Shown in pieces: positions 3,341-55,103 of a stretch of 64,000 bases of DNA (positions are counted from its first letter, which is position 1; every line of letters begins with the position of its first letter). This DNA comes from a bacterium (GTDB lineage Bacteria > Patescibacteriota > Minisyncoccia > UBA6257 > 02-FULL-45-10c). The notes under the pieces were generated by a model that did not search any database, was not told the DNA's origin, and worked only from the letters and a program-made list of their open reading frames with translations. The position numbers and the translations under genes were made by a program. The stretch spans positions 2,748 to 66,747 of the forward strand of contig JAUYKI010000017.1 of assembly GCA_030700025.1 (NCBI GenBank), given 5' to 3'.

Positions 3341-3399
3341 TTTTTTAAATTGGACATTTAGAATTTTATTAGAAATTAGATATTAGTAATTAGAAATTT

Positions 3400-4668
3400 A
3401 TGTTTAAAAAGTATGTTTTATCCAGCGGTTTAAGAGTGGTGTTGGCTCCCCAGCCGGACAATGTGGCGGCCACGGTTTTGGTATTGGTAGAGGCGGGATC
3501 AAAATACGAAACCAAAAAAATTAACGGCTTATCTCATTTTTTGGAACATTTATGTTTTAAGGGAACGGCTAAGCGGCCGACGGCGATTGCCATTGCTTCA
3601 GAATTGGAATCTTTGGGAGCGGTTTACAATGCTTTTACCGGGCACGAAGTAACCGGTTATTACGCCAAAGTCGGCGCGTCTAAAATTAATTCGGCTTTGG
3701 ATATTATCGCCGATCTTTATCAGGACCCGGTTTTTGACGAAGCGGAATTTGAAAAAGAAAAAGGAGTTATTATTGAAGAAATTAATTTATACGAAGATAC
3801 GCCGACCCGGAAAGTCCAGGAACTTTTTACGGAATTGATGTACGGCGATCAGCCGGCCGGCTGGCCCATCGGCGGTTTGAAGGAAGTAATTTTGTCGTTA
3901 AAAAAACAGGATGTTTTGAATTACCGCTCGGAGCACTACGTGGCTAAGGCTACGACCGTAGTGGTTGCTGGCGCTTTTAATGAAAAAGAAATGCTGAAAA
4001 GAATAAAAACGCTTTTTGCTAAAACTCCGGCTAACAAAAAATTCTCTAAAATCCGCACTCAAGAATCCCAGGCCCGGCCTCAAACTTTAGTGCGCTTTAA
4101 AAAATCAGACCAAACTCATTTGGTAATGGGCTTCCGGGCATTTGACCGGTACGATAAACGGCAGTACGCGCTGGAAGTTTTAGCGGATATTTTGGGCGGC
4201 GGCATGAGCTCCCGGCTTTTTCAAAGAATCAGGGCAGAATTAGGCGCGGCTTATTACGTTAAAGCCGGAACCGATTTATTTACGGATCATGGATTTTTGT
4301 CCGTATCGGCCGGAGTGGACCACCGGAAATTAAAAGAAGTTATTGAGGCAGCTTTGGGGGAGTTTAAGAAAATTTCTTCGGTTTTGGTAACTTCCAATGA
4401 GCTAGAAAAATCTAAGAATCATTTGACCGGCCAGGCGATGCTGGGTTTGGAAACCTCGGACGCCTTAGCCAGTTTTTACGGAGAACAGGAGATTTTCCAG
4501 GAAAAGATATTGAACCTTCGGGACGTTATTAAAAAAATAGAGGCCGTGACCGCTAAAGACGTTTTAAACGTTGCCCGTGAAATTATGAAGGATAAAAAGT
4601 TGAATTTGGCGCTTATCGGACCGGTCAAGAAGCTTCCGACCGGGCTGGATTTTAGTTTGGGGCGGTAG
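3400..4668 (+). CDS. M16 family zinc peptidase (pitrilysin-like)
   Basis: HFLEHLCFKGT carries the inverted zinc motif HxxEH. The 422-aa two-domain length is typical. Confidence 0.85.
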   Translation: MFKKYVLSSGLRVVLAPQPDNVAATVLVLVEAGSKYETKKINGLSHFLEHLCFKGTAKRPTAIAIASELESLGAVYNAFTGHEVTGYYAKVGASKINSALDIIADLYQDPVFDEAEFEKEKGVIIEEINLYEDTPTRKVQELFTELMYGDQPAGWPIGGLKEVILSLKKQDVLNYRSEHYVAKATTVVVAGAFNEKEMLKRIKTLFAKTPANKKFSKIRTQESQARPQTLVRFKKSDQTHLVMGFRAFDRYDKRQYALEVLADILGGGMSSRLFQRIRAELGAAYYVKAGTDLFTDHGFLSVSAGVDHRKLKEVIEAALGEFKKISSVLVTSNELEKSKNHLTGQAMLGLETSDALASFYGEQEIFQEKILNLRDVIKKIEAVTAKDVLNVAREIMKDKKLNLALIGPVKKLPTGLDFSLGR

Positions 4669-5803: not shown

Positions 5804-6092
5804 GAACCTATCTCAATAATATTTCCTAACCGCGTTGCTAAGATAAATGCCAGATTTCAAGGCACGACGACGAAATTATGGCCATAGCCACATTGAGGAG
5901 GAGTAACGAAGAAATATGGCATTTAGACCGCAACCCAAAGGGACATAGTAAATTTTGTTCATAACTTCGTTGCTCGGGCTCGACGTAGCCAAGCTACAGT
6001 CTCGCCCCTGCCTGCCGGTAGGCAGGCTCGCGCCTTGTTCTGAATCAAAATTTACTTATATCGCGTTTGGAATTATTATTGGGATAGGTTCT
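5804..6092 (+). ncRNA. Candidate structured element, ~280-nt family, copy 1 (RNA versus DNA repeat unresolved)
   Basis: 24-nt terminal arms pair (5804-5827 with 6069-6092, 2 mismatches). P2 pairs 5844-5858 with 5911-5925 (14/15). P3 pairs 5947-5957 with 6046-6056 (11/11). Shares the core TGAGGAGGAGTAACGAAG and CTTCGTTGCTCG with the copies at 27767 and 44559. Confidence 0.5.
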
Positions 6093-7736: not shown

Positions 7737-8410
7737 AAAAGAAAAATCCCCCGACATGCGTCAGGGGAAATGATGATGGGCAACAGTTGCTTTGCAGTGT
7801 TATGAGGTATTAGCCTCTAGCCATAAAGTGGCTGTCTGTTCTGCGTTGCTTCTGTTGCCGTTGACTCGGAATTTTGTCAGGGCGGGTGGACACCGGGTTA
7901 GCTCGCGCGGCTGAAAGAAAGTCAGCCTTCTATTCCCGGCGCCACCTTTGGCAGTGAGATGGTTGTAACACCCCACCGGCCAGCAGCCTGCCCCGACTTT
8001 ACGTCGGGGTCCCCTCCGGCTTGTGACCGGAGGATGATTCCAAATAGCAGTTGCCTTTCGCAGATTATGAGCCTATTGGGCTCTGACCAAAAAAGTGGTC
8101 TTCTTTCTGTTAGCTTCTGTTATTGGATGATTCCGCCCCGACGCTTTGTAAGCCGTCGGGGATACTGCTACTTGGTGAGCCGGTCCTAAGGTAGCGAATC
8201 TTTGGTTTCCTACCCACCAAGATGATGCTTCTTATTGTAGTTAAGGAACGAAAGTAGCGCGATGTGACTCTGCAACTGTCCAGTTTGTGTTGCATCGGAG
8301 CGGAATACCCGGGTGGACGGCCCCAAGGCTCCTACGGCTCTTTGCCTGATCTCGGGTTCTTCCCGACGTCAACCAAGCATTGTAAGAACCAAAGCCAGCA
8401 TCGCTAAGTA
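7737..8410 (-). ncRNA. Candidate large structured RNA (unclassified); boundaries approximate
   Basis: ORF-poor 880-bp gap with many perfect helices. Two helices carry G-U pairs only when read on the minus strand. A minus-strand terminator sits at 7748-7767 with a T-run, and a TTGACA-N17-TATCCT match at 8439-8411 (-). Confidence 0.45.
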
Positions 8411-8603
8411 AGGATAGCACACCTCAAACCCTTTGTCAATAGCGGGTTTGCAATCTCTAAATTCTAATCCCTAATCTCTAAATAAACTCGAAGCTCAAAT
8501 ATCCGGATTTTTAAATTTTATTTTTGAGATTGGACATTGGAAATTGTTTAGAAATTAGGGTTTAGGAATTAGAAATTTATCAAAACATGTTATTATTAAT
8601 TCC

Positions 8604-11745: not shown

Positions 11746-11891
11746 AGAAAGAGTGTTTTATTCTCCCGCTACTGTTCAAACTCCCGGCGAGAGTTTTCAC
11801 TGGGTCTCGGGCTTCGCTCTTTCCGCCTTTGGCGGAAAACCCTGCCCGCTCAGCCCTCAGCCCGCGCTACGGAGAATAAAACACTCTTTCT
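11746..11891 (+). repeat. GC-rich inverted-repeat-bounded element, copy E1
   Basis: AGAAAGAGTGTTTTATTCTCC and GGAGAATAAAACACTCTTTCT form perfect 21-nt arms. The interior is homologous to the reverse complement of 36623-36810. Confidence 0.7.
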
Positions 11892-11904
11892 AATTTTTAT
11901 GGAA

Positions 11905-19734: not shown

Positions 19735-19974
19735 ATGGCAGTGGTTCACAAGAGAAATAAAGTTGCGGAAGCTCAGGAATTTTTGAATAGCGACGTTGCG
19801 AAGAGCCATGGACTTCGAATTATGAAATGGGATGGCAAAAAAGTTCTGGCATGGGATAGCCGAAGGCAAAAATGGACCATTGACGATTGCTTTCGGGGCG
19901 GACCACTATGGGAGGGCTTTGTACGGCTGGCATTCTATTTTCAACGAAAGAAGCCGTTTCAAGTTTCCATTTAA
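19735..19974 (+). CDS. Hypothetical small protein (79 aa)
   Basis: Strong GGGAGGTG Shine-Dalgarno 5 nt before ATG, a TTGACA-N17-TATATT promoter at 19672-19700 and a terminator at 19986-20011. Confidence 0.6.
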   Translation: MAVVHKRNKVAEAQEFLNSDVAKSHGLRIMKWDGKKVLAWDSRRQKWTIDDCFRGGPLWEGFVRLAFYFQRKKPFQVSI

Positions 19975-19985
19975 GATGGTATATC

Positions 19986-20011
19986 GCCCGCGGAATTCCG
20001 CGGGCATTTTT
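19986..20011 (+). terminator. Intrinsic terminator
   Basis: GCCCGCGG-aatt-CCGCGGGC followed by ATTTTT. Confidence 0.6.
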
Positions 20012-20017
20012 ATTTTT

Positions 20018-20062
20018 AATTGGCTTGTATCGCGTTATGGGATTACTATTAGAATAGGTTCT
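20018..20062 (+). repeat. Solo 3' end of the ~280-nt element family
   Basis: 40 of 45 nt identical to 44787-44831 (AATTGGCT..TATCGCGTTATGGGATTA.TATT.G.ATAGGTTCT). Confidence 0.65.
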
Positions 20063-20065
20063 ATT

Positions 20066-20905
20066 ATGGAAAAGTTTATCGGATTAATTTTATTGGCTTT
20101 TGCCGTTGCCGCGGGAATCTTTATATTTTCCCGCGAGGGCGGTTTGTCCAAGTTGGCGGCTCCTTACACTGTTAAGTTGGAGCCGTATTCTTACCGGCAA
20201 AGATATTCGGATGCCGGAGCGGATCAGCCCTCTGGATCGGACTATAGCTCTTACGGCCAATCGGAAATTGAAAACAGAAAGTTGTTAACCATTTCTTCGT
20301 TCCGGCCAGCCAATAGTTATGTTTCTTATTCGGAGATAGTTTTAGATTCCAATTTGAACAGCGGCGAGACCGCGGACATTACCGGCTGGATCATTAAGGG
20401 TGAACACGGATCATTCACTATTCCGCGGGCGCAGGAAGTTTTTTCTTCCGGCGGAGTTGAGGGCAATATCGTGGCGCGTTCCCGGGACGCGATTTATCTT
20501 TATTCCGGCTTTGGACCGAAGGGCAATTTCCGTTTGAATAAATGCCTTGGTTACATAGAAGACGTTGCTCCGTTTACGCCGCCTCTGCCTAAAGATTGCC
20601 CGCAAATTTCCTGGTCGGAGATGCAGAGGTTCGGGGGTTATTGCCGGGATTATATTTCTTCGCTGGATACTTGCCAGACACCGAATGCTAATCCGCCGGT
20701 GCCCTTGGAAGATACGGCTTGCCACGCTTTTTTGCGGGATTTGAACTATGTCGGCTGTGTTGCGAATCATCGGAACGATCAGGATTTTCGTTCCAACGAA
20801 TGGAGGGTTTGGATGGGGGATCAGATGAATATCTTTGACCCAATTCACGATCGAATCCAGCTTTGGGATAAAAGCGGAAAATTGGTAGACGAATACATTT
20901 ATTAG
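20066..20905 (+). CDS. Membrane-anchored lamin-tail-domain-like protein
   Basis: Start moved to MEKFIGLILLAFAVAAGIFIF (TM helix). The upstream part of the ORF crosses a terminator. ...ADITGWIIKGEHGSFTIP... resembles the LTD signature. Confidence 0.6.
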   Translation: MEKFIGLILLAFAVAAGIFIFSREGGLSKLAAPYTVKLEPYSYRQRYSDAGADQPSGSDYSSYGQSEIENRKLLTISSFRPANSYVSYSEIVLDSNLNSGETADITGWIIKGEHGSFTIPRAQEVFSSGGVEGNIVARSRDAIYLYSGFGPKGNFRLNKCLGYIEDVAPFTPPLPKDCPQISWSEMQRFGGYCRDYISSLDTCQTPNANPPVPLEDTACHAFLRDLNYVGCVANHRNDQDFRSNEWRVWMGDQMNIFDPIHDRIQLWDKSGKLVDEYIY

Positions 20906-27766: not shown

Positions 27767-28041
27767 GGGGTCTGTCATAAAATTACTGGCTTAATTTGGA
27801 GGCCTGGATTTGAGACAGGTACGAGACGCGACGACGACAACGTGTCTGAATGAAGGACACGTTGAGGAGGAGTAACGAAGTAGCTGGCCAAAGATAGGCC
27901 TCCCCGAAGGGCCAAAGCATTTTATGGGCTGCGACTGCGTCACTCGTCGTCAATGTAGCTAAAGCTACAATCTCCTCCTCGTTTCTTGTCTCGCTCCAAA
28001 AATGCTATGGTAAATAAGTCATTAATTTTATGACAGACCCC
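27767..28041 (+). ncRNA. Candidate structured element, ~280-nt family, copy 3
   Basis: P1 pairs 27767-27785 with 28023-28041 (19/19, sequence unrelated to copies 1 and 2). P2 pairs 27798-27805 with 27896-27903. P3 pairs 27916-27923 with 27999-28006. Hairpins at 27839-27863 and 27954-27969. Core TGAGGAGGAGTAACGAAG at 27863-27880. Confidence 0.5.
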
Positions 28042-33060: not shown

Positions 33061-34599
33061 ATGGGACCGGAAGAAGCAGATCAGTTAGTTCAGAAATATT
33101 TTAAGCGAAAGGGATTGCCGTTAATGCCAGCAGTTACCTTTGATGATGTTTTAGTTCGGGAAGGAATTTCCAGCATTGCTAGCCGGAGCGACATTACTAA
33201 TTTAAAGGCTCAGCTGGCAAAAGATTTTTGGCTGAATATTCCGGTAGTGTCCGCTAATATGGACACGGTTACGGATTCGCGTATGGCAATTGCTTTGGCT
33301 CGGCTGGGCGGTATGGGTTTCATCCATCAGTTCGTTTCGCTGGAAGACCGGCTGGAAGAAGTCAGCAAGGTTAAGCGGGCGGACAATATGGTGATTGAAA
33401 ATCCGGCGACCATTCGTCCGGAAGCAACTTGGGCGGAAGCGCAAGCGGTAATGGCGGAACGGGAAATTTCCTGTTTGCTGGTTACTGACGCGCAAGGAAT
33501 TTTGGCCGGCATCTTAACGTCGCGCGATACTCAATTTTGTTCCGACCCCAACGCTTTAGTTGGAGATTTAATGACTCCGAAAACCAGAGACGGACACTTT
33601 GTTTTGCAAACTGCCCGTCCGGATATTTCCAATGAAGACGCGGAAAAAATGTTAAAGCGTTCCAAGGTAGAAAAACTTCCTTTAATAGATGATGAGGGCA
33701 AGGTGGTTGGATTGATTACGGCGAAAGATATTTTAAAGCGCCGGATGTTTCCCAACGCGGCCCGGGACGAAAAGGGCCAGCTGTTAGTTGGCGCTACTTT
33801 GCGGTTCAGCGGAAATTATTTGGAAGAAGCGAAAGCGTTGATCGACGCCGGAGCGGATGTATTGCTGTTAGATACGGCGCGAGCCAGTTCTTCATCAGAG
33901 GACGGAATTTTGGCGTCGCAGTATTTAACGCCCGGGAAAATTGTGGAATTAGCCGCGGAAAGAACCGCGAAAATTAAATACGTGTTTCCAAAAATAGTTT
34001 TAGTGGTTGGTAATACTGCCAATCCGGAAGCGGTGGCGCTTCTGGCAAGCCGTGGAGCGGATTGCGTTAAAATCGGAATTGGGCCGGGAGCGGGATGTAA
34101 GACTCAGGAAGTAGCCGGAATCGGTTCGCCTCAGCTTCACGCGATCGCGCAATGCGCGGCGGTGGCCAGAGAAATCGGAGTTTGTTTAATGGCTGACGGC
34201 GGAATTAGAAATGGCGGTTGCATGGTTAAAGCGCTAGTTGGCGGAGCAAATGTGGTGATGCTGGGAAGTTTGCTGGCGGGAACCGACAAATCTCCGGGCC
34301 TGCTGGTTTGGAATCGAAAGGAAAATAAACTGGTTAAGAAATACCGCGGTTCGGCATCCACTGAACATCAGCTGGATAGGATTAAAGTTGGGGATTTGCA
34401 CGCGGTTAGAACGTCAGAGGGCGAAGCCGGAGCGGTTCCTTACATGGGCACGACGGTTTCGCTGATTGATGATCTGCTTGGCGGATTGCGGTCGGGCATG
34501 AGTTATGTCGGCGCCCATAACCTAGAAGAGCTTTGGCAGTTCGGCAGATTTGTTTGGAGAACGCAGGCCGGAATTGAAGAAGGAAGACCCCGAATATAA
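33061..34599 (+). CDS. guaB: IMP dehydrogenase family protein with CBS pair
   Basis: GIGPGAGCKTQEVAGIGSPQ catalytic-Cys loop, and a CBS pair at roughly aa 110-230. Confidence 0.85.
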   Translation: MGPEEADQLVQKYFKRKGLPLMPAVTFDDVLVREGISSIASRSDITNLKAQLAKDFWLNIPVVSANMDTVTDSRMAIALARLGGMGFIHQFVSLEDRLEEVSKVKRADNMVIENPATIRPEATWAEAQAVMAEREISCLLVTDAQGILAGILTSRDTQFCSDPNALVGDLMTPKTRDGHFVLQTARPDISNEDAEKMLKRSKVEKLPLIDDEGKVVGLITAKDILKRRMFPNAARDEKGQLLVGATLRFSGNYLEEAKALIDAGADVLLLDTARASSSSEDGILASQYLTPGKIVELAAERTAKIKYVFPKIVLVVGNTANPEAVALLASRGADCVKIGIGPGAGCKTQEVAGIGSPQLHAIAQCAAVAREIGVCLMADGGIRNGGCMVKALVGGANVVMLGSLLAGTDKSPGLLVWNRKENKLVKKYRGSASTEHQLDRIKVGDLHAVRTSEGEAGAVPYMGTTVSLIDDLLGGLRSGMSYVGAHNLEELWQFGRFVWRTQAGIEEGRPRI

Positions 34600-34711
34600 A
34601 TTTCTAATTACTAATTTCTAATTACTAATGACTAAGTTCAAAATTCAAATCCCGCAATTGCGGGATTTTTTATTTGAAAATACTTCAAAATTGATTTAAT
34701 ATATTTTCAAC

Positions 34712-36810: not shown

Positions 36811-37507
36811 AGCGTGTTTTAGCAATTACCAACGCGATTATTTTTTTGGCGCCGGCGGATTTTAAAGTTTTAGCGGCTTCGCGGATAGTGGCTCCGGAAG
36901 TGTGAACGTCGTCAACGAGAAGGATATTTTTTCCCACTATCAGTTCTGGGTAATTAACCGCGAAGCAGTTAATCACATTTTGCGCCCGTTCTTCATGATT
37001 CTTGGCAAGCGACTGGGTTTTAGTATTTTTAATTCTTTGAATCGGCTCCGTTAAATCTAATTTATAAAAATCAGCAACAATTTTCGCAATCAATTTTGCC
37101 TGATTAAATCCGCGTTCTTTTTCCCGATCTTCGTGAAGCGGGATTGGAACCACGGTAAAATTTCTAATATCTAAATCCAAATTTCTAAGATACGAGACTA
37201 GAATTTCGCCTAATGGCCTTTGAAGCCGCTGCCATTTTTTAAATTTAAATAATTTCAGCAAAGTCCGGATGGAATCGTTATCGTAATTAGTGGCGGCGGC
37301 CAAAAGATAAGGAGAATCTTTATGGCAGACCTTTTTATTATCCGCCAGGCGCAATCCGCAAACCGGGCAAAAAAGCGAAGTATTGAGGCGGATGCCGGCC
37401 CAGCACTCCGGGCAAAGATCGCCTTCAGCGTTTTTTTGGCAGTTTAAGCAGAGCGGAGGAAAGAGGATGTCCCACAGCCAGGTTTTCATTTTTTGGAGAT
37501 AGCTCAT
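36809..37507 (-). CDS. comFC: ComF family protein (double zinc ribbon plus phosphoribosyltransferase domain)
   Basis: CLNC...CPEC...CPVCG zinc ribbons and a PRTase motif ILLVDDVHTSGAT. ATG 37507 preferred over TTG 37543. Confidence 0.85.
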   Translation of the reverse strand: MSYLQKMKTWLWDILFPPLCLNCQKNAEGDLCPECWAGIRLNTSLFCPVCGLRLADNKKVCHKDSPYLLAAATNYDNDSIRTLLKLFKFKKWQRLQRPLGEILVSYLRNLDLDIRNFTVVPIPLHEDREKERGFNQAKLIAKIVADFYKLDLTEPIQRIKNTKTQSLAKNHEERAQNVINCFAVNYPELIVGKNILLVDDVHTSGATIREAAKTLKSAGAKKIIALVIAKTR

Positions 37508-37750
37508 GTCTGTTATACTAATAATAGATTTAGAATAAGGCAATGGATTCCAATAACTAATTTCTAATATCTAATTTCTAATAAAATGACCGAAATCACA
37601 AACCACAAGCACCAAATCACAAACAAGCACCAATGACCAAAATCATAAATTTAAAACCCGTTTGGAATTTCTATTATTTGAATTTAGAATTTGTTTGTAA
37701 TTTGAGATTTGTAATTTGGAATTTTATCAGAAATTGTAAATTGTAAATTT

Positions 37751-38812
37751 ATGTCTTTTTTTGAAAAACTTCTTCATAACAAAACTTATTTCGGCGTGGA
37801 TATCGGCACGACCTCTATTAAAATTGTGGAATTAAAACAGGGAGGCCAGAAGCCGGGCCTGAAAGATTATTGCGTTTTGGAAAGCTACGCGCATCTGGAA
37901 AAATTTAACGCGGCCATTCAAACCAGCAATTTAAAAATGCTGGACCAGAAAACCGCGGAATATTTGAAAACCGCGATTCAGCAGATAGAGTCTAAAGACA
38001 TTGAAGCCATTGCTTCGGTTCCGACTTTTTCCGCTTTTACTACTTTGATTGAAATGCCGGCTATGTCGGAGGCGGATACGAGCAAGGCCATGGCATTCCA
38101 GGTTAGGCAGTATGTTCCTTTGCCGATTTCGGAAGTAACCACCGACTGGATAAAAATTATGGAAAAAAAGGATTCTGCCGGCAATTTAATCCAGCAAGTT
38201 CTGCTGATTTCCATTCCGAATGAAATTATTAATAAGTATAAAAATGTTTTTCAGTTGGCGGGCGTGAAATTAATCGCTTTAGAAGTGGAAGGATTGAGTT
38301 TGGCGCGGGCGCTGACTCTTGGTTCGCCGGAAGTTTCGCTGATTGTGGATATCGGATCCCGGTCTACCAGTATTCTTATCGCCCAAAACGGCTTTTTGAA
38401 GTTTGTCAGCCAGACGGATTTCGCCGGCAGTTCCTTAACGCAGAATTTGGCTGCCGGAACCAGCCTTTCTCCGCAGGAGGCCGAAGAAATGAAACGGCAG
38501 AGGGGCATTGTCTCGGGGGAGTTATCCACACTGCTGATACCGGTGCTGGATGCTATAATAAATGAGACGAGACTAGTCAAGGAAGATTTTGAAAAGAACT
38601 ATAAAGAGCCGGTCCAAAAGCTTATTTTGACCGGAGGCGGGGCTAATCTGAGCGGCATTGAGAAGTACTTTGGCGAGCAATTGGGCTTGCCGGCCGTTAA
38701 GGGCAATCCGCTGTCACGGGTGGATTATCCGGAAGAATTAAACCCCTTGCTTGGAGAATTGAATAATACTTTGGCGATTGCCGCCGGACTCGCTTTAAGG
38801 GATGTACACTAG
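37751..38812 (+). CDS. pilM: Type IV pilus assembly protein PilM (actin-like ATPase fold)
   Basis: YFGVDIGTTSIKIVEL N-terminus, 353 aa, first gene of the pilus cluster. Confidence 0.85.
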   Translation: MSFFEKLLHNKTYFGVDIGTTSIKIVELKQGGQKPGLKDYCVLESYAHLEKFNAAIQTSNLKMLDQKTAEYLKTAIQQIESKDIEAIASVPTFSAFTTLIEMPAMSEADTSKAMAFQVRQYVPLPISEVTTDWIKIMEKKDSAGNLIQQVLLISIPNEIINKYKNVFQLAGVKLIALEVEGLSLARALTLGSPEVSLIVDIGSRSTSILIAQNGFLKFVSQTDFAGSSLTQNLAAGTSLSPQEAEEMKRQRGIVSGELSTLLIPVLDAIINETRLVKEDFEKNYKEPVQKLILTGGGANLSGIEKYFGEQLGLPAVKGNPLSRVDYPEELNPLLGELNNTLAIAAGLALRDVH

Positions 38813-42284: not shown

Positions 42285-43352
42285 ATGGCTGATTATAAGG
42301 CGAGATTAATAGATTTACTTTCCGAGGCGGTCAAGCAAGACGCTTCGGATTTGCATATTGCGGTAGGTCAAAAGCCGATGCTTCGGAAGGACGGAAGTTT
42401 GGTAGCTTTAGAAAGTGAATCGGTTCTGAACCCTAAGGACGCCGAAGGATTGGTGTTGGCGTTATTAAACCCTGATCAAAAAAACAAATTCTTGGAAGAA
42501 AAGCAGTTAGATTTTGCGTATGACCTGGATGGCAGAGCCAGGTTCCGTATTAACGCCTATTTTCAAAGAGGATTTATGTCGGCGGCGCTCCGTTTAATTT
42601 CGGCGAAAGTTAAAACATTGGAAGAATTGGGCTTGCCGATGGTGTTGAGGGAATTTGCCAAATTATCCCAAGGGCTCTTGCTGGCAGTCGGTCCGGCTGG
42701 ACAAGGAAAGTCCACGACTTTAGCGGTGGTAGTAGATGAAATCAATCGCCAGCGCGCCGACCATATTATTACCATTGAAGACCCGATTGAATATTTGTTT
42801 GAACAAAATAAAAGCATTATTTCCCAGCGGGAAGTTCGTTTGGATACTTTAACGTTTCACGACGCCTTGCGATCGGTTTTGCGGCAGGATCCGGATGCAA
42901 TTATGATCGGTGAAATGCGCGACGCGGAATCTATTGCCAGCGCTTTAACCGCCGCGGAAACCGGCCATTTGGTTCTTTCCACCTTGCATACTAATTCGGC
43001 TTCTCAGACTATTGACCGGATTGTGGATAGTTTTCCGTCCGGCCAGCAGCCGCAAATTATTTCTCAGCTGGCATCCACTTTGATAGGCATTGTTTCCAAA
43101 AGATTAATTCCTAAAATTGGCGGCGGACGGGTTCCGGCTTGCGAAATTATGATAATGAATCCGGCAATCCGGAATTTAATCCGGGAAAAGAAGTTTTTCC
43201 AGATAGATAACGTTATTGAAACCAGCAAAGGCGAGGGCATGATCAGCTTAAACCGTTCTTTATCGGAGCTGGTGAAGGCCAAGCAAATTACTCCGGCGAA
43301 CGCGGAATTATATTCCATTAGCCCGAAAGAATTAAAATTGATGTTAAAATGA
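42285..43352 (+). CDS. pilT: Twitching motility (retraction) ATPase PilT
   Basis: GPAGQGKSTT Walker A, 355 aa, PilT-type length. Confidence 0.9.
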   Translation: MADYKARLIDLLSEAVKQDASDLHIAVGQKPMLRKDGSLVALESESVLNPKDAEGLVLALLNPDQKNKFLEEKQLDFAYDLDGRARFRINAYFQRGFMSAALRLISAKVKTLEELGLPMVLREFAKLSQGLLLAVGPAGQGKSTTLAVVVDEINRQRADHIITIEDPIEYLFEQNKSIISQREVRLDTLTFHDALRSVLRQDPDAIMIGEMRDAESIASALTAAETGHLVLSTLHTNSASQTIDRIVDSFPSGQQPQIISQLASTLIGIVSKRLIPKIGGGRVPACEIMIMNPAIRNLIREKKFFQIDNVIETSKGEGMISLNRSLSELVKAKQITPANAELYSISPKELKLMLK

Positions 43353-44557
43353 AATTTAAATACGTTGCTAAAACTAAAACCGGCGAGCTGCAAACAGGAT
43401 TTATTGAATCGCAGGACCGCAATTCCGCCACTAGCGCTTTGGTTAGCCACGAGCTGGCAGTTTTAAGCTTAGAATCCGCGGATGTGCCAAAGTGGTACGA
43501 ACAATTTTTAAATTTATTTAAAAGAGTAAGCAGTACCGACCTGATGGTTTTTACCCGCCAATTCGCCACTTTATTGGATGCTAAAATTTCCTTGGGCGAT
43601 TCTTTAAAAAATCTTCATCGCCAAACCCGCAATGTTGCCTTAAAAGAAGCGGTATTTGATATTTCGGCGGACATTGAAGCCGGCTTGTCTTTATCGCAGG
43701 CCTTGGAGCGGCACTCCGCGATTTTTCCGGACTTCTACGTTAACATGGTGCGTTCGGCGGAAATTACCGGCCGGATGAGCGAAGTTATGATGTTTTTGGC
43801 GGATTATCTGGAAAAGACCCAGGCGACTTCCACTAAAGTCCGGAACGCCATGATTTATCCGGTAGTGGTAATTATTTTGCTGGTTGGCGTGATGCTGGTG
43901 ATGGTAGGTTTTGTTTTTCCTAAGTTAATTCCGGTTTTTGAAGAATCAAACGTGGAATTGCCGTTAATCACTAAAATAATTTTTGCCATTGGAACCTTTA
44001 TCAGCAATTGGTGGTGGCTGGTTTTGCTGGCTTCTATTGCCGGAGCTTATTTTCTGGTTTCTTACTTAAAAACCAAAGAGGGCAGGGTAGTGTTAGACGA
44101 AGTTTTAATGAAATTGCCGGTTTTTGGAACTATGCTTCGGAAGCTGTATATTTCTAGATTTGCCGAACTGACCAGCGTTTTGATAAAAGGCGGAACTCCG
44201 ATAGCCCAAAGTTTGGGAATTGCCGGCAATACCGTGGGCAGTTTTATTTATCGGGACCAGATTTTAGAAATTGCCGAAGCGGTCCGGCAGGGACAGCTGA
44301 TGTCCCAGGCGCTGGAAGAACGGCAGGTGTATTTTCCGGTTTTAGTCAGCCAGATGGTTTCCGTGGGCGAAAGCACCGGCAAGCTGGAAGAGTTATTAAG
44401 CCGGGTATCAAGCTTTTACACAAGAGAAGTGGATGACTTGGTTAATAATTTGGTAGAATTAATTCAGCCCCTTCTGATGGTAGTAATCGGCGTGGCAGTA
44501 GGAATTTTATTTGCTTCAGTATTGCTGCCAATTTTCAGCTTGGTGCAGACTTTCTAA
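43349..44557 (+). CDS. pilC: Type IV pilus platform protein PilC (GspF family)
   Basis: 402 aa with two GspF repeats and 3 TM segments. Overlaps pilT by 4 nt. Confidence 0.9.
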   Translation: MKFKYVAKTKTGELQTGFIESQDRNSATSALVSHELAVLSLESADVPKWYEQFLNLFKRVSSTDLMVFTRQFATLLDAKISLGDSLKNLHRQTRNVALKEAVFDISADIEAGLSLSQALERHSAIFPDFYVNMVRSAEITGRMSEVMMFLADYLEKTQATSTKVRNAMIYPVVVIILLVGVMLVMVGFVFPKLIPVFEESNVELPLITKIIFAIGTFISNWWWLVLLASIAGAYFLVSYLKTKEGRVVLDEVLMKLPVFGTMLRKLYISRFAELTSVLIKGGTPIAQSLGIAGNTVGSFIYRDQILEIAEAVRQGQLMSQALEERQVYFPVLVSQMVSVGESTGKLEELLSRVSSFYTREVDDLVNNLVELIQPLLMVVIGVAVGILFASVLLPIFSLVQTF

Positions 44558-44558
44558 T

Positions 44559-44830
44559 GAACCTATCCCAATAATAATCCTCAAACGCGTTGCTAGTATA
44601 AATTGAAAATTTCTAGGCCTGCCGAGGAGCTTGTGGCCATAGCCACAGTGAGGAGGCAGAACAACGAAATTTTCAATTTAGACAGCAACCCCAAGAGGGA
44701 TACAGCCAATTTTATCCATAACGTCGTTGCTCGTCGAAGATATAGCTTACGCTATAAATCTTCTCCTCGCGTCTAGTTCTGAATAAAATTGGCTAATATC
44801 GCGTTATGGGATTATTATTGGGATAGGTTC
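44559..44830 (+). ncRNA. Candidate structured element, ~280-nt family, copy 2 (best preserved)
   Basis: P1 22/22, P2 15/15, P3 12/12, two hairpins and conserved cores. See the finding for coordinates. Confidence 0.55.
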
Positions 44831-50477: not shown

Positions 50478-53453
50478 ATGAATATCCGGAATTATAAATT
50501 TTTAATACTTTTCTTAATCGGCCTTTGGGGCGCCGGTAATTTGGCCTTTGCGCAAATTACGCCGGACCCTGGTGAGCACGCGGTTAGAGTTTATAAATCC
50601 GGCACCGGCAGTGGTTTGGTAACAGACCAGTATTCCCAAATTGACTGCGGGAACGATTGCCAGGGGAATTATATTGGGGCTGCTTCCACCTGGGTTACTT
50701 TGGAACCTTTTCCTTCTCCTAACAGCTCTTTTGCCGGTTGGTACGGTTGTGACTCCGTAAATACCATGGTTATATTGCCTGATTTGCCGACTTGCTCAGT
50801 TAATACGAGCCCCTTCGTTCCTAGATCAGTTAACGCGATTTTTAACTCTAACACCCCGTGGCATCAAGCTAAATTAACCGTGACTACATCGGGCGATGGC
50901 GGGGGATCGGTATTTTCCAATCCCGGATTTATCAGTTGCGGAGCGGTTTGTTCCGATAATTTTTCGAATCCTTCTTATCCTTTATTTACCGCCACTCTTA
51001 TCAACACCGGTTCCTTAGGGTCATTTACCAATCAGCAGGTAATACATATTGTTGATAGCAGTGGTAGAATCACAGTGGGCGGAAATAGGCTTCAGACCCT
51101 CAATTCGGAAGGTGTGACCAATCCTCAGCAAACTATTATTGACATAGCGGACGGATTTATAAACGTATCGCCGACTATTAAATATATTTACGCGCTGGGA
51201 TATAGGGGGAGTGGAAATATTGCTGAATATCTTTTGGACGTGATTAATCCTTCTGCTCCTCAGGGAGCGCAAGCTAGTGCGCCAGAGGTGGTGAATCGTA
51301 TTCCGCTCCCCATAGATTCAACTGGAGGGGAAGATTACAGCGTTTACTCTAAAATTGCTCTGGCCGGAAATTTTGTTTATATAACTCGTTGGTCAGGAAC
51401 TTCGGTCAGCGCGGGTGGCAGTGGAGGCGCTTTATTGATTTTTGATATATCTGATCCGTTGAATCCGGCGCAGGTCGGGTTCATTGCTCCCCGCTTCAGT
51501 CCTGGCTATGGAATCGCGGCGATTAATAATCCTTTTATTGGAAATTATGCTTATATGGGACAGCAGCATCAGTTCTCTGTAATTGATGTTTCCAGTCCGG
51601 CTAGTCCGGCAGTTGTCGGCACTGTCGGCGGCACCGGCCTATTTAAGGGCGTTTTTAATGAAGTGGCTGAAGCCTTTCCGTATGTTTATGTTTCCAGCGT
51701 GAATGCTTCGGATAATTCCAATACGCTTTATATTATAGACGTTAGTAAGCCGAACAGCCCGGCGTTGATTAGCGCGACACCGATTGATTATTTTAACGGC
51801 GATTTAAGGCCGGCCGTCGGAGGAAAGCTTCTTTTTATCGGTTCCACGGTTTATGATGTTTCTGATCCGTTTCATCCCAGAAAAATCGGCCAAGGGCCGG
51901 GAGGCGTTCAATATGGGGGCGATACTTCTTTTCAAGTTGGAAGTTTGAATGAAGGCAATGATTATGTTGTAACCGGAACCAACGCTACGGGATTCGGCAT
52001 CTACTCGATTAAAAGAACTTTTGTTACGGGTACTGGTTGGGTTCCCACTTATGACCTTTTATCTTTTGCTCCCGGATTGGGAATTTATCCTAACCCGACT
52101 GTTAGTTTATCCGGAGAGCCGGAAGACGATTCGATTTTGGGCGCTTGGTCCGGAGATGTTCCGGGAACTTGCGCCAACAACGCGTCGTGTTTAGTAACTG
52201 CTGTTTTGGGCGCGGAAACTAACGCAGATGCCAGATTTGATGCCGCCGCGGCGCTCGCGCCTACTTCGGCAACTTTAACCGTTACTAAATCCGGAAATGG
52301 ATCCGGCCATGTATCTGATTCGGCTTTGGATTCTTCTTCGTTAGGCGGCGCTTCTTTGGGCGGCGGATCATTGGGTTTTGTTTCCGGGGGAATTGATTGC
52401 GGCGGGGATTGCGATGAAACTTACCCAACGGACACCAGCGTAATTCTTTTGGCAACGCCAAGCGCCGGATCGGATTTTGTAAAATGGAATGGCTGTGTAA
52501 TCGGTGCGGTAATGAAAGATGACGGAGCGCTTTGGAATCCGGCTACTTTGGCGGCTAAACAATCTAACGGCGCTAATGCTTGGGACGGAAGAAATTACAG
52601 CGCCTTGGCTTTCCAAAACAAGCTTTGGGTTTTAGGAGGCGGGAGCACCTTAGGCCAAGTATGGTATTCGGCTGACAACGGCATTACTTGGGCGCAGTAT
52701 ACTCGGGCCTTTATCGCTCCGTCGTCGTGGGCTCCGTGGTGGTCAACTAAATTCGGATTCTCGGCGTTGAGCTACGGAACCAAGATGTGGGTTTTGGGCG
52801 GAACGGAGGGCGGTAGTTCTTATACTAATGAAGTTTGGAGTTCTTTTGACGGCCAAAATTGGAGTCAGGGGCTGAATGCCGATTGGTCTCCGCGGGTTAA
52901 CTTTGCCGCAACCAGATTTAACGGCTCTATGTGGGTATTGGGCGGAAATGCTAAAGAAAATAATAGTTTTGTAAATAAAAATGATGTCTGGTCTTCGGTT
53001 GGCAGTTCCGGATATTGGAGTCCTGTAAATGTATCTGCCGCTTGGTCTGCCCGACAAGGCCATGCCGCAGTCGCTTTTAATGGCCAATTATGGGTTTTAG
53101 GCGGATTGGACGCGGGCGGTTATAAGAATGACGTTTGGTCATCTTCCAACGGAACTGATTGGATTCAAAAAAATTCTTCGGCGCCTTGGCCGGCTCGGGC
53201 TTTTCATAAAGTTTTGGTTTTTGATAATAAACTTTGGGTGATGGGCGGTTCGGGCTCTTTTCAGCCGGCCGATTTTAAAAATGATGTGTGGTATTCCGTG
53301 GACGGCGTTAATTGGATTCAGTCGGGATTGGCGGATTGGCCGGCTCGGTTTGATTTTGGCGCTACGGTTTTCAATAATAAAATGTGGATTTTGGGCGGAA
53401 CGGTCGGGTCCAATTTATATGTAAATGACGTTTGGTATTCGGCGGCGCATTAA
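50478..53453 (+). CDS. Large secreted protein: B-repeats, LVIVD-like beta-propeller region and six Kelch-like blades
   Basis: Signal peptide. YVYVSS...LYIIDVSKPNSP-type repeats in the middle. C-terminal NKLWVLGG...NDVWSS.DG..W repeated six times. Confidence 0.8.
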   Translation: MNIRNYKFLILFLIGLWGAGNLAFAQITPDPGEHAVRVYKSGTGSGLVTDQYSQIDCGNDCQGNYIGAASTWVTLEPFPSPNSSFAGWYGCDSVNTMVILPDLPTCSVNTSPFVPRSVNAIFNSNTPWHQAKLTVTTSGDGGGSVFSNPGFISCGAVCSDNFSNPSYPLFTATLINTGSLGSFTNQQVIHIVDSSGRITVGGNRLQTLNSEGVTNPQQTIIDIADGFINVSPTIKYIYALGYRGSGNIAEYLLDVINPSAPQGAQASAPEVVNRIPLPIDSTGGEDYSVYSKIALAGNFVYITRWSGTSVSAGGSGGALLIFDISDPLNPAQVGFIAPRFSPGYGIAAINNPFIGNYAYMGQQHQFSVIDVSSPASPAVVGTVGGTGLFKGVFNEVAEAFPYVYVSSVNASDNSNTLYIIDVSKPNSPALISATPIDYFNGDLRPAVGGKLLFIGSTVYDVSDPFHPRKIGQGPGGVQYGGDTSFQVGSLNEGNDYVVTGTNATGFGIYSIKRTFVTGTGWVPTYDLLSFAPGLGIYPNPTVSLSGEPEDDSILGAWSGDVPGTCANNASCLVTAVLGAETNADARFDAAAALAPTSATLTVTKSGNGSGHVSDSALDSSSLGGASLGGGSLGFVSGGIDCGGDCDETYPTDTSVILLATPSAGSDFVKWNGCVIGAVMKDDGALWNPATLAAKQSNGANAWDGRNYSALAFQNKLWVLGGGSTLGQVWYSADNGITWAQYTRAFIAPSSWAPWWSTKFGFSALSYGTKMWVLGGTEGGSSYTNEVWSSFDGQNWSQGLNADWSPRVNFAATRFNGSMWVLGGNAKENNSFVNKNDVWSSVGSSGYWSPVNVSAAWSARQGHAAVAFNGQLWVLGGLDAGGYKNDVWSSSNGTDWIQKNSSAPWPARAFHKVLVFDNKLWVMGGSGSFQPADFKNDVWYSVDGVNWIQSGLADWPARFDFGATVFNNKMWILGGTVGSNLYVNDVWYSAAH

Positions 53454-53456
53454 AAT

Positions 53457-55103
53457 ATGGAAAACTGGAAACAAAAAATTTATTTATTGTTGGCGTTGGC
53501 GGGAATTGGATTTATCGCGGGAACCGTTTTTGCCGCGGATGCCGGGGTTCGCTGGTTTCAAACCGATCCGGTCGCCGGGGCAATCTGGACTGCCAGAAAC
53601 GGACACTCGGCTCTGGTTTTTAACAACAAAATGTGGATTTTAGGAGGAACTCTCTCGCCGGGTTATAAAAATGATGTTTGGCTTTCTTTTAATGGCATCA
53701 ATTGGGTTCAACGGACTCCGTCCGCCGCGTGGCAGGCCAGGACCGAACACGCGTCCCTAGTCTTTAATAATAAAATGTGGGTTTTGGGAGGATCTATCTC
53801 GACGGGTTTTAAAAATGATGTTTGGTCTTCCGCGGATGGATTTACTTGGAATTCAGAAACTGCCGCGGCCGCCTGGCCGGCAAGAGATCGCCACGCGTCC
53901 CTAGTTTTTAATAATAAAATGTGGATTTTAGGAGGATCTACCTCGGCGGGTTCGAAAAATGACGTTTGGTCTTCCGTGGACGGAATTACTTGGACGCAAG
54001 AAACTGCTTCCGCCGGCTGGTCTCCGCGTTTCGACTTAGTAGCTCTCGTTTTTAATAACAAGATGTGGGTTTTAGGCGGCAGTGGTTCTCTGAATGATGC
54101 TTGGTCTTCTTCAGATGGAGTTACGTGGACCAGGGTCAGTCCGGCAATTGGCGCTGATTGGCCGGGGCGGTCCGGGCATACCGGAGTGGTTTATGACGGA
54201 AAAATGTGGATTTTTGGCGGACAAAGAGCAAATACCATTTTTAATGATGCTTGGTATTCCGTGGACGGAATAAGTTGGTCTCAGGCGTTATTAGCGGCTG
54301 ATTCTCAATGGGGCGCCCGATGGAATCACGCTTCTTTAGTCTTTAATAATAAAATGTGGATTTTGGGCGGTTCTGGCGGCCCTAATAAAAATGATATTTG
54401 GCATTCCCAGCAGGATAATCTTCCGGTGGAAGCGTGCGTGATTACCAGTGATAGAAATCGGACTGTTGACGCGGAATTTAAAGGCCAGCTTTATACGGTT
54501 ACGGTGGTTAGCATTAATCAGGACGGAGCCGGAAAAGGCGCGGTTAGTTCCACGGATAATAAAATCAGCGATTGCCAAACGATTTGTTCCGCCGAAAATT
54601 ATGCTTACAATTCCAGTGTTGCTTTAAACGCCATGGCCGCCGACGGTTCGGAATTTGACCATTGGGAAGGGCCAAGCCCTTGCGATAACAGCGCCGAATT
54701 GAGCTGTTCTTTGACTTTAACCGGCGATGTAACTGTTTACGCGGTATTTAAATCGTTGATGGCCGCTTGCGTGGTGGAAAAATCAGTTACCGCGAACTTT
54801 GCCACTTCTTTTCCGACTTGTACGCTGACGATTGCTCCGCAAGGAACAAATGCCAGTCAGGCAATTATTTCTTGGACCACCACTAATAATCCGACTAGCG
54901 CTGTTATAGATGATGGCGTTGGTGCGCCAGTAGCGGTGACTATCCCGCCGGCCAGCGGTAGCATGACGATTACTCCGCCTGGCAACACTACTTATATTAT
55001 GACCGTCACGAATAACGCCGGCAGCCGCACTTGCAGCGCTCAGGCTTCAGCGGCGCCCGGAAGATTTCAATTTAAAGATATTCGCGAAATTCTCCCGTTT
55101 TAG
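53457..55103 (+). CDS. Secreted Kelch-repeat beta-propeller protein with C-terminal B-repeat/Ig-like region
   Basis: Six blades with the ATGTGG landmark spaced 141-150 nt apart (53631, 53775, 53919, 54063, 54204, 54354). Confidence 0.8.
   Translation: MENWKQKIYLLLALAGIGFIAGTVFAADAGVRWFQTDPVAGAIWTARNGHSALVFNNKMWILGGTLSPGYKNDVWLSFNGINWVQRTPSAAWQARTEHASLVFNNKMWVLGGSISTGFKNDVWSSADGFTWNSETAAAAWPARDRHASLVFNNKMWILGGSTSAGSKNDVWSSVDGITWTQETASAGWSPRFDLVALVFNNKMWVLGGSGSLNDAWSSSDGVTWTRVSPAIGADWPGRSGHTGVVYDGKMWIFGGQRANTIFNDAWYSVDGISWSQALLAADSQWGARWNHASLVFNNKMWILGGSGGPNKNDIWHSQQDNLPVEACVITSDRNRTVDAEFKGQLYTVTVVSINQDGAGKGAVSSTDNKISDCQTICSAENYAYNSSVALNAMAADGSEFDHWEGPSPCDNSAELSCSLTLTGDVTVYAVFKSLMAACVVEKSVTANFATSFPTCTLTIAPQGTNASQAIISWTTTNNPTSAVIDDGVGAPVAVTIPPASGSMTITPPGNTTYIMTVTNNAGSRTCSAQASAAPGRFQFKDIREILPF

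Follow-up and report, generated by a model that had tools for sequence, protein, structure and literature searches.

The 272-nt element at 44559-44830 of the window, which is the whole 64-kb stretch of DNA that was analysed, raises the question of whether a repeated sequence that stays folded while its letters change is a dedicated functional RNA or a piece of mobile DNA. The original prediction described an unclassified multi-helix family and favoured a folded RNA. In our analysis the family is most likely a new structured mobile element, similar to MITEs, REPINs and intervening sequences (IVSs), rather than a dedicated functional RNA. The anatomy of the element is described first, followed by its distribution, the covariation of its helices, the symmetry of its two strands and the evidence for its movement.

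Anatomy of copy 2 and the other copies in the window

The element at 44559-44830 is referred to as copy 2 (Table 1). It starts 1 nt past the TAA stop codon of a T2SS-F/PilC-like gene (43349-44557), and a pilin-like gene (44933) begins 102 nt beyond its end. The "+" strand of the element is a convention only, in which the arm with the G·A block comes first; the element folds alike on both strands. The core of the closing helix P1 (44559-44580 with 44809-44830) is a perfect inverted repeat of 22/22 bp, for which shuffled sequences gave an expectation of 0 chance matches, and P1 is extended by a further 5 bp (44584-44588 with 44801-44805). The coordinates predicted for P1, P2, P3 and both small hairpins were right; these helices are seen in the sequence and were recovered by minimum-free-energy folding, with 15/15 bp in P2 (44599-44613 with 44666-44680) and 12/12 bp in P3 (44704-44715 with 44783-44794), as had been claimed. 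Compared with shuffled sequences, copy 2 gave z = -11.7 (+ strand) and -14.5 (- strand) when folded as RNA, and z = -12.7 (+) and -13.6 (-) when folded as ssDNA.

Table 1. Coordinates of copy 2, its structural parts and the other members of the family in the window.
Feature	Position	Strand	Remarks
Copy 2, whole element	44559-44830	+	272 nt, subtype A
Closing helix P1, 5' strand (terminal inverted repeat)	44559-44581	+	pairs with 44808-44830
Closing helix P1, 3' strand (terminal inverted repeat)	44808-44830	+	
Arm 1	44589-44689	+	stem 44589-44613 with 44666-44689; capping hairpin 44632-44647
Arm 1, conserved non-Watson-Crick block	44615-44630 opposite 44648-44665	+	
Middle hairpin between the arms	44690-44699	+	CCC-AAGA-GGG
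Arm 2, inverted homologue of arm 1	44704-44794	+	stem 44704-44722 with 44776-44794; capping hairpin 44741-44756
Arm 2, pyrimidine block	44722-44736 opposite 44760-44776	+	
Copy 1	5804-6092	+	289 nt, subtype A, full-length homologue
Copy 3	27767-28041	+	275 nt, full-length homologue
Solo 3' end	20018-20062	+	last ~45 nt of a subtype A element, ~89% identical to the end of copy 2
Second solo 3' end	57122-57146	+	25 nt, 3 mismatches in 22 relative to the terminus of copy 2

Three copies and one solo 3' end had been predicted in the window. All of these are real, but the second solo 3' end had been overlooked. All five copies or fragments lie in the same orientation, and each faces the start of a downstream gene. 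Copy 1 sits past the terminator of an upstream transporter gene, ends 1 nt before the ATG of metG (6094) and has TTA on either flank; its arm 2 holds an additional hairpin (6010-6027). Copy 3 lies between two tRNA genes (- strand) on one side and a SWIB-domain gene (+ strand) on the other. Both solo 3' ends are preceded by a terminator hairpin. The first is followed 3 nt on by an in-frame ATG at 20066, which we regard as the true start codon of the listed ORF 19832-20905, and the second is followed 16 nt on by the ORF starting at 57163.

The window holds two subtypes of the element, subtype A (copies 1 and 2) and that of copy 3, which is nearest to subtype B from Elusimicrobia (64-68% identity, versus ~50% to copies 1 and 2). 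Short-read assemblies of the genome to which the window belongs end inside the element. The window belongs to a CPR bacterium of Parcubacteria type. The MetRS encoded in the window is at most 72% identical to any other MetRS and 61-64% identical to the matches named Harrisonbacteria.

Distribution of the family

The family is unclassified, as predicted, in that no Rfam family matches it. A search of the whole window with Rfam 15 at the gathering score identified six tRNAs and nothing else, and a search at E<=10 with copy 2, one subtype B copy and one subtype C copy returned noise or nothing. For the DNA search, a degenerate pattern was built from the conserved blocks. This pattern matched four contigs of a groundwater Elusimicrobia MAG, one Candidatus Harrisonbacteria MAG and six metagenome contigs, and it had 0 matches in viral contigs. 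An additional search of viral contigs with arm 1 only gave one match, which lies inside a phage ORF and was set aside as chance. Also, blastn gave no match for a subtype B copy in plasmids or for copy 2 in phages.

Gene callers frequently call spurious ORFs over the element. A profile of the translated sense frame was searched against a protein collection, and 24 of the "proteins" identified are additional copies of the element; in a larger protein library, 70 cluster representatives match the same profile. The contigs that encode the matching "proteins" contributed copies from three Azambacteria genomes and several groundwater metagenomes. Taken as protein-coding sequence, some copies do have long open frames, but the stops and frame-shifting indels, which break the frames of most copies, together with the covarying stems, exclude a conserved protein.

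These searches identified ~20 further distinct copies, all 266-290 nt long, from Parcubacteria (Harrisonbacteria and Azambacteria), one Elusimicrobia MAG and groundwater metagenomes. The 19 distinct full-length copies (266-290 nt) form three subtypes, between which identity is 40-58%. The closing inverted repeat measures 22-33 bp across the family; the terminal repeats differ greatly among subtypes, and the interior is conserved. The closing helix of subtype C is tRNA-like (GTTCGAATCC then 12 nt). This resemblance was set aside, as no matching tRNA gene was found and the feature is absent from the other subtypes.

Covariation and the G·A block

Covariation was measured on an alignment of 19 sequences, whose consensus fold consists of the closing helix, two long arms that each have a capping hairpin, and a tiny middle hairpin. 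Standard pairs occupy 93.2% of cells, compared with 69.6% after shuffling, and none of 500 shuffles reached the observed value. Both sides have changed in 60 of the 75 pairs, and in P1 covarying pairs make up 23 of 25. When the partners were slid by 1-3 columns, pairing fell to 34-44% of cells. Thus the proposal that the helices are kept by compensatory change between copies is borne out; the stem changes quoted for the copies in the window are right, and the pattern holds on the 19-sequence alignment.

What looks like an internal loop in arm 1 is in fact a helix, in which C-G pairs separate three tandem G·A pairs; each strand has one such helix. In most copies the block reads C-G, G·A, A·G three times over, i.e. 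(CGA)3 opposite (GAG)3, and copy 3 has this canonical form. G·A or A·G is present at the three tandem positions in 16-19 of the 19 sequences. The block of copy 2 reads T-A, G-C, C-G, C-G, G·A, A·G, G·G, G·A, A·G. In copy 2 and in one other copy (L006) the outer tandem G·A has been swapped for G-C/C-G, and this double change indicates that the positions of the block face each other in a helix. Copy 2 had been called the best preserved copy, which is not so in this block, where its outer tandem G·A has become G-C/C-G and its middle C-G has become G·G. Arm 2 on the + strand has G-C pairs plus tandem T·C/C·T, which read from the other strand are tandem G·A. In RNA, helices of tandem G·A pairs commonly serve as protein-binding motifs.

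The two arms had also been said to carry mutually complementary cores, from which a loop-loop or pseudoknot contact was proposed. The cores can indeed pair (86% of cells), but this pairing has almost no covariation of its own, and the tertiary contact finds no covariation support. In 86.5% of cells GAGGAGG could pair with CTCCTC as a pseudoknot; shuffles give the same value, and covariation is zero. A nested "rod" pairing of the cores was likewise rejected (86.3% versus 84.7% in shuffles, with weak covariation). The cores are complementary because the two arms are inverted copies of each other.

Strand symmetry and gene context

Background on structured RNAs gives a simple expectation, namely that a selected RNA would tolerate G·U pairs and avoid A·C pairs. 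The helices of the + strand contain 27 G·U and 25 A·C. By RNAalifold the two strands have consensus folding energies of -81.5 (+) and -87.4 (-) kcal/mol, and single sequences fold with equal energies on both. In addition, models of the two arms each recognise the other arm on the reverse strand, with E as low as 1.7e-13 (arm 1 model on arm 2) and 3.5e-13 (arm 2 model on arm 1), while no cross-arm match in the same orientation was significant (best E 0.21). The model of the whole element also matches each copy at full length in reverse. Thus the element consists of two inverted half-elements, with the G·A helix in the 5' arm of each strand.

The gene context of the copies is similarly mixed. 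Among 14 insertions between co-directional genes, nine are sense and five antisense, a mild and non-significant sense excess. For example, one copy (L010) lies antisense between rpsS and rplV of the S10 operon, 5 nt from each. The neighbours are unrelated housekeeping genes, which include those for aminoacyl-tRNA synthetases, pilus proteins, SecDF, radical SAM enzymes, Omp85 and cytochrome bd, as well as rpoB. Many copies abut a TAA stop codon or sit within 5 nt of a start codon. A strand-specific ncRNA or cis-regulatory leader was rejected for these reasons: G·U equals A·C, the orientation is mixed and there is no consistent gene association. The original prediction attributed the pattern to selection on a folded RNA "(or ssDNA)". 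The helices are indeed kept by compensatory change, and the part in brackets fits better than RNA; no feature marks one strand as the RNA strand.

Mobility and insertion sites

Recent MITE spread had been dismissed as an explanation for the copies. On the contrary, the family is mobile, as several observations show. First, there is an empty site. At a ProRS locus (L024) the element lies between ...GTTACTCTAT and TTATGACACTGCAATCG, and at the orthologous loci of three related genomes (L031, L032 and L033; ProRS 80-89% identical) the same flanks have just 7-14 nt between them. Secondly, there are independent insertions near rpoB. In two Azambacteria loci (L016 and L017) the element lies next to rpoB and follows a small gene in the sense orientation; in another (L015) it also lies next to rpoB but precedes the homologous small gene and is antisense. 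The L015 and L016 insertions around this one small gene upstream of rpoB are independent. Third, near-identical copies occur in one MAG. In the Elusimicrobia MAG the element occurs at unrelated loci of four contigs, and the three full-length copies that were compared are 91-97% identical. Also, the sequences of two loci (L018 and L023) agree completely as far as the 3' closing strand of the element and are unrelated past there, which marks a rearrangement breakpoint.

The element has the generic traits of a MITE: it is short, non-coding and multi-copy, has terminal inverted repeats and varies in presence or absence at orthologous sites. Copies are dense, with 3 full copies and 2 fragments in the 64 kb of the window and at least four contigs in one MAG. 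The flanks are T/A-rich, and identical 3-nt direct repeats (TTA or TAA) flank 4 of 17 copies (permutation p = 0.015). With 1 nt of slop the count is 5 of 17 (p = 0.055), and the others are just T..A-rich. Whether the variant is TTA or TAA agrees on both sides within a copy. Overall, flanking duplications are clear in 4-6 of the 17 copies. Duplications of 5 bp were considered and rejected as inconsistent among copies. The termini (GGRGYC...) and TWA flanks may recall the ends of IS5/IS1031 or Tn3-family elements. The IS1031 group has a 3-nt target (PMC2516522).

The window and the 36 loci analysed yielded neither a parent element with matching terminal repeats nor a transposase, and the proteins scanned in the window and in the loci around the copies include no RT or Y1_Tnp match. 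One region (L001:1687-2427) looks by eye like a decayed integrase-type transposase. It was rejected as a parent, as it has no Pfam or NCBIfam match and no matching ends.

Copies inside 23S rRNA genes and apparent insertions in protein genes

Three Hainich groundwater contigs from three samples (L034-L036) cover the 5' end region of a 23S rRNA gene, where the loops of two hairpins, at Rfam LSU model positions ~229 and ~418-436, have been replaced by inserts of 272 and 327 nt. Each insert contains one full-length member of the family (E 1e-44 and 1e-47), which is antisense under the "+" convention. A further copy, of subtype A, begins shortly before the 23S gene. The 23S-borne copies have classical intervening-sequence anatomy, in which the loop of a helix is replaced by a stem-loop closed by inverted repeats. 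This anatomy is limited to the copies on L034-L036; those in the window are intergenic. Most CPR 23S genes have unexplained insertions (PMC9297842).

Members of the family also appear within predicted proteins. In a methyltransferase-like protein (P0269), residues 95-195 match the element profile and lie within the match to the methyltransferase domain, which suggests, from one protein sequence, an in-frame insertion of the element. In another (P0267), an element peptide is fused to the N-terminus of a protein of the 6-phosphogluconolactonase family.

Interpretation

The reading that we favour, with a probability of roughly 0.6, is that of selfish mobile DNA that is non-autonomous and is moved in trans by an enzyme whose gene lies elsewhere. 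Each half-element consists of a 22-33 nt terminal repeat and a hairpin arm of ~100 nt, and the two inverted halves are joined by the tiny middle hairpin. Because the halves are inverted, either DNA strand, or a transcript of either, folds into the same closed three-arm structure. The complementarity of the stems may be kept through recognition of this folded form, as single-stranded or extruded DNA and/or co-transcribed RNA, for mobilisation. The invariant G·A block would then be a candidate recognition site for the mobilising or a processing protein, and insertion would take place at T-W-A with a 2-3 bp duplication. By sealing the insert off from the host RNA, the closing helix would make it tolerable in mRNA and rRNA in either orientation; by analogy with classical rRNA IVSs, this helix is probably trimmed by RNase III.

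Several observations count against a mobile element. No parent or transposase was found in the window or the fetched loci, and clear duplications were present in few copies. The terminal repeats are variable and the interior is conserved, the reverse of a typical MITE. In addition, all five copies or fragments in the window point the same way, the family overall has the mild, non-significant sense excess (9:5), and the length is unusually constant. The fold may be kept for a DNA-level or an RNA-level reason.

Mobilisation could also be structure-specific and of a new type, in that the enzyme would recognise the single strand by its three-arm fold, by way of the tandem G·A hairpin, and would not read the sequence of the terminal repeats. 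This proposal is tentative, and we consider it unlikely. A fold-reading enzyme would explain why the termini drift while still pairing, why the interior is conserved, and why mRNA spacers, ORFs and rRNA helices have been colonised in two phyla.

It is likewise unlikely that an element that spreads as DNA has its fold selected mainly at the RNA level, as a device for tolerance or processing. The G·A block would then bind an RNA-binding or processing protein, which would be in keeping with the common binding of proteins by tandem G·A helices, and the closing helix is predicted, by analogy, to be the RNase III site at which the insert is removed from rRNA and mRNA. A plain long hairpin would suffice for RNase III, however, which does not account for the three-arm anatomy or the invariant block, and arm 2 offers only pyrimidine mismatches on the same transcript. 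Folding in either orientation would also make G·U approximate A·C at the lineage level, so the balance of mismatches is compatible with selection on RNA. In favour of such a device, insertions lie within the S10 operon, in the pilC-pilin spacer and next to start codons, and two copies are at helix tips of a 23S gene, like classical IVSs (PMC4990558).

The main reading of the original prediction, a functional host RNA, cis- or trans-acting, that happens to be multi-copy, is already largely refuted and must be considered quite improbable. Its very strong covariation, constant length and conserved unpaired-looking blocks are what would be looked for in such an RNA, but they come without strand asymmetry and in arms that are inverted homologues. 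Similarly, the five copies or fragments in the window all face the start of a gene downstream, whereas 5 of the 14 copies between co-directional genes are antisense and the neighbours are unrelated. The family matches no known one, which a new host RNA would share; variation in presence or absence among relatives, and copies within rRNA and within an ORF, argue against it. Lastly, it is very improbable that the compensation is a mutational by-product of template switching at quasi-palindromes or arm-arm conversion, without selection on the fold: quasi-palindrome correction is an established mutational process, the complementarity is Watson-Crick on both strands and one tandem G·A has been "corrected" to G-C/C-G in two copies, but the G·A and pyrimidine mismatches stand uncorrected in 16-19 of 19 copies across phyla, and copies with 40-50% sequence identity share their length and arm architecture, neither of which is expected without selection.

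Significance

A mobile DNA element of this kind carries a caution for the discovery of ncRNAs, as mobile palindromic DNA can give very strong helix covariation. The comparison of G·U with A·C, together with folding of both strands, quickly tells a mobile palindrome from an RNA. The family has consequences for MAGs as well, since the element breaks assemblies and has been annotated as hypothetical proteins in public MAGs. One family spans intergenic repeats, an apparent in-frame ORF insertion and 23S insertions of CPR bacteria, and it thereby ties rRNA intervening sequences to genome-wide mobile elements, which is an old idea. Related subtypes in Parcubacteria and in a diderm groundwater Elusimicrobia MAG point to exchange between them. 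The (CGA)3/(GAG)3 tandem G·A helix is a concrete candidate for the recognition motif of a mobilising or processing protein. If structure-specific mobilisation were true, at least part of the numerous unexplained rRNA insertions in CPR bacteria, and perhaps classical IVSs, would be members of genome-wide mobile families. The parts most worth following are the link between the repeat family and the rRNA IVSs of CPR bacteria, and the conserved tandem G·A module.

Comparison with known systems

Three known systems were rejected as a home for the family, each because a defining feature is lacking. Integron attC sites conserve structure over sequence and keep defined unpaired or mismatched positions in the folded single strand. 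The element shares with them the maintenance of structure over sequence and the defined mismatched positions in the folded strand, but it has no R/L core boxes, cassette arrays or nearby integrase and is twice the size. A PATE derived from IS200/IS605, with subterminal hairpins in one strand at either end and without terminal inverted repeats, does not fit, as the ends of the element are perfect inverted repeats and the arms match significantly only in reverse. A retron msr-msd ncRNA, which combines a closing a1/a2 helix with a neighbouring reverse transcriptase gene, does not fit either, as no RT adjoins any copy.

Rickettsia palindromic elements (RPE) are selfish palindromic repeats found in frame in protein genes and in intergenic DNA. 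The element has the same habit of in-frame and intergenic sites (in frame here in one protein, P0269), but the sequences are unrelated and the hosts differ.

REPINs are symmetric, adopt either one long hairpin or a "clover" of separately folded units, have compensatory changes and have been proposed to be ssDNA substrates (PMC3116915). Like REPINs, the element is non-coding, multi-copy and extragenic, and is made of two inverted units with a hairpin kept by compensatory change. However, its units are arms of ~100 nt rather than REPs of ~25-35 nt, and it has an additional closing inverted repeat of 22-33 bp. It lacks a conserved 5' GTAG next to a short palindrome; GTAGC is present just as a stem of the capping hairpin and is variable among copies. 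Some copies have TWA flanking repeats, and others lie in rRNA and ORFs, which also sets the element apart from REPINs. RAYT (TnpA-REP), the Y1 HUH tyrosine transposase that mobilises REPINs from a single-copy gene usually flanked by REPs, was not seen among the proteins of the window or the loci.

The bcr1 repeats of the Bacillus cereus group are flanked by short direct repeats, differ in distribution from strain to strain and maintain a cruciform-like fold through compensatory changes (PMC3184786). The element resembles them in its terminal inverted repeats, lack of coding capacity, dispersal and co-transcription with host genes. It is larger than they are (~270 versus 105-155 nt), it folds into three arms and carries an invariant tandem G·A block, its terminal repeats are less conserved than its interior, and it occurs in two phyla; no parent IS was found for it in the window or the loci. 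Correia and ERIC are other bacterial MITEs with conserved folds.

The rRNA IVSs have a closing stem of inverted repeats, which is cut by RNase III where tested, and they have been proposed to be remnants of transposition (PMC4990558). As in the 23S IVSs of Salmonella, Leptospira, Campylobacter, Coxiella and Alphaproteobacteria, the 23S-borne copies replace a hairpin loop with a stem-loop closed by inverted repeats, and their distribution is sporadic. Their sites are in domain I (LSU model ~229 and ~418-436) rather than in helices 9, 25 or 45, and unlike those IVSs the family lies mostly outside rRNA genes. Thus the element differs from REPINs, bcr1-like MITEs and IVSs in its size, three-arm anatomy, G·A block, conserved interior and range across two phyla.

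Features associated with the element

The sequences of two loci, L018 and L023, are identical across a sigma-factor gene and most of the adjoining copy of the element (1748-2019 and 1483-1753, respectively). They diverge within the 3' strand of its closing helix, and the sequence downstream is unrelated. A rearrangement has therefore broken the sequence at a point within the element.

In the window, all five copies or fragments of the element share one orientation, which is also that of most genes and of positive GC skew. This uniformity may be due to chance (p ~0.06), or insertion may be biased by replication or transcription.

In subtype C, one of the three sequence groups of the element, the closing helix has a 3' strand similar to a tRNA gene 3' end, reading GTTCGAATCC followed by 12 nt and then the element end. 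This feature is absent from the other subtypes, and no tRNA gene matching the subtype C strand was found in the loci.

Two ORFs in Candidatus Azambacteria that span the element, A2850_04120 and HY250_01650, are publicly annotated as hypothetical proteins, but it is almost certain that neither is a gene. A separate ORF of 246 aa lies 331 nt from the element copy in L001. By eye, its N-terminus is helix-turn-helix-like and its C-terminus is like that of an integrase-type transposase, while the catalytic core is absent. This ORF had no match in Pfam or NCBIfam, and it is without ends that match those of the element.

Other insertions and repeats

Insertions other than the element are also present in the 23S rRNA gene of L034, a Hainich groundwater contig, and these measure 90 nt (with CAAGTCA repeats), 78 nt and ~100 nt. 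In addition, a gene-poor stretch of L016, from Azambacteria, contains two LAGLIDADG endonuclease ORFs, which probably represent rRNA gene introns.

Several other features were noted in the window. First, AT-rich heptamers (TTAGAAAT/TCTAAAT type) occur in runs that adjoin gene ends. The run at 8446-8585 is weakly matched on both strands by miRNA-precursor (hairpin) models, which suggests a long palindrome. Secondly, a perfect inverted repeat of ~21 bp (AGAAAGAGTGTTTTATTCTCC and GGAGAATAAAACACTCTTTCT) encloses ~100 nt of G+C-rich sequence, and is a second small inverted-repeat element with no relation to the family at 44559-44830. Third, a G+C-rich stretch of ~670 nt without an ORF is situated between the metG terminator (7745-7770) and a tatD-like gene (8604). 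This stretch had no match in Rfam at E<=1, and a large non-coding RNA of unknown type could be encoded here. Lastly, repeats with a period of 144 nt occur within two large ORFs, and have the look of beta-propeller or Kelch repeats at the protein level.

Coordinates of the element copies and other features, by locus
Feature	Locus	Positions	Strand
Element copies	window	5804-6092; 27767-28041; 44559-44830	
Solo 3' ends	window	20018-20062; 57122-57146	
tRNA-3'-end-like closing strand, subtype C	L029	6194-6221	
tRNA-3'-end-like closing strand, subtype C	L030	382-410	
tRNA-3'-end-like closing strand, subtype C	L002	5976-6003	-
tRNA-3'-end-like closing strand, subtype C	L009	2444-2468	
Element-spanning annotated ORF	L015	10001-10330	
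Element-spanning annotated ORF	L016	10001-10315	
246-aa ORF	L001	1687-2427	-
23S rRNA gene insertions	L034	1093-1182; 568-730; neighbouring stretches	
LAGLIDADG ORFs	L016	4788-6103	
AT-rich heptamer runs	window	8446-8585; 3358-3401; 34588-34649; 37155-37188; 37548-37581; 37683-37759	
Inverted repeat	window	11747-11770; 11872-11893	
ORF-free stretch	window	7771-8440	
144-nt-period repeats	window	52600-54400	
ORFs with 144-nt-period repeats	window	50478-53453; 53457-55103
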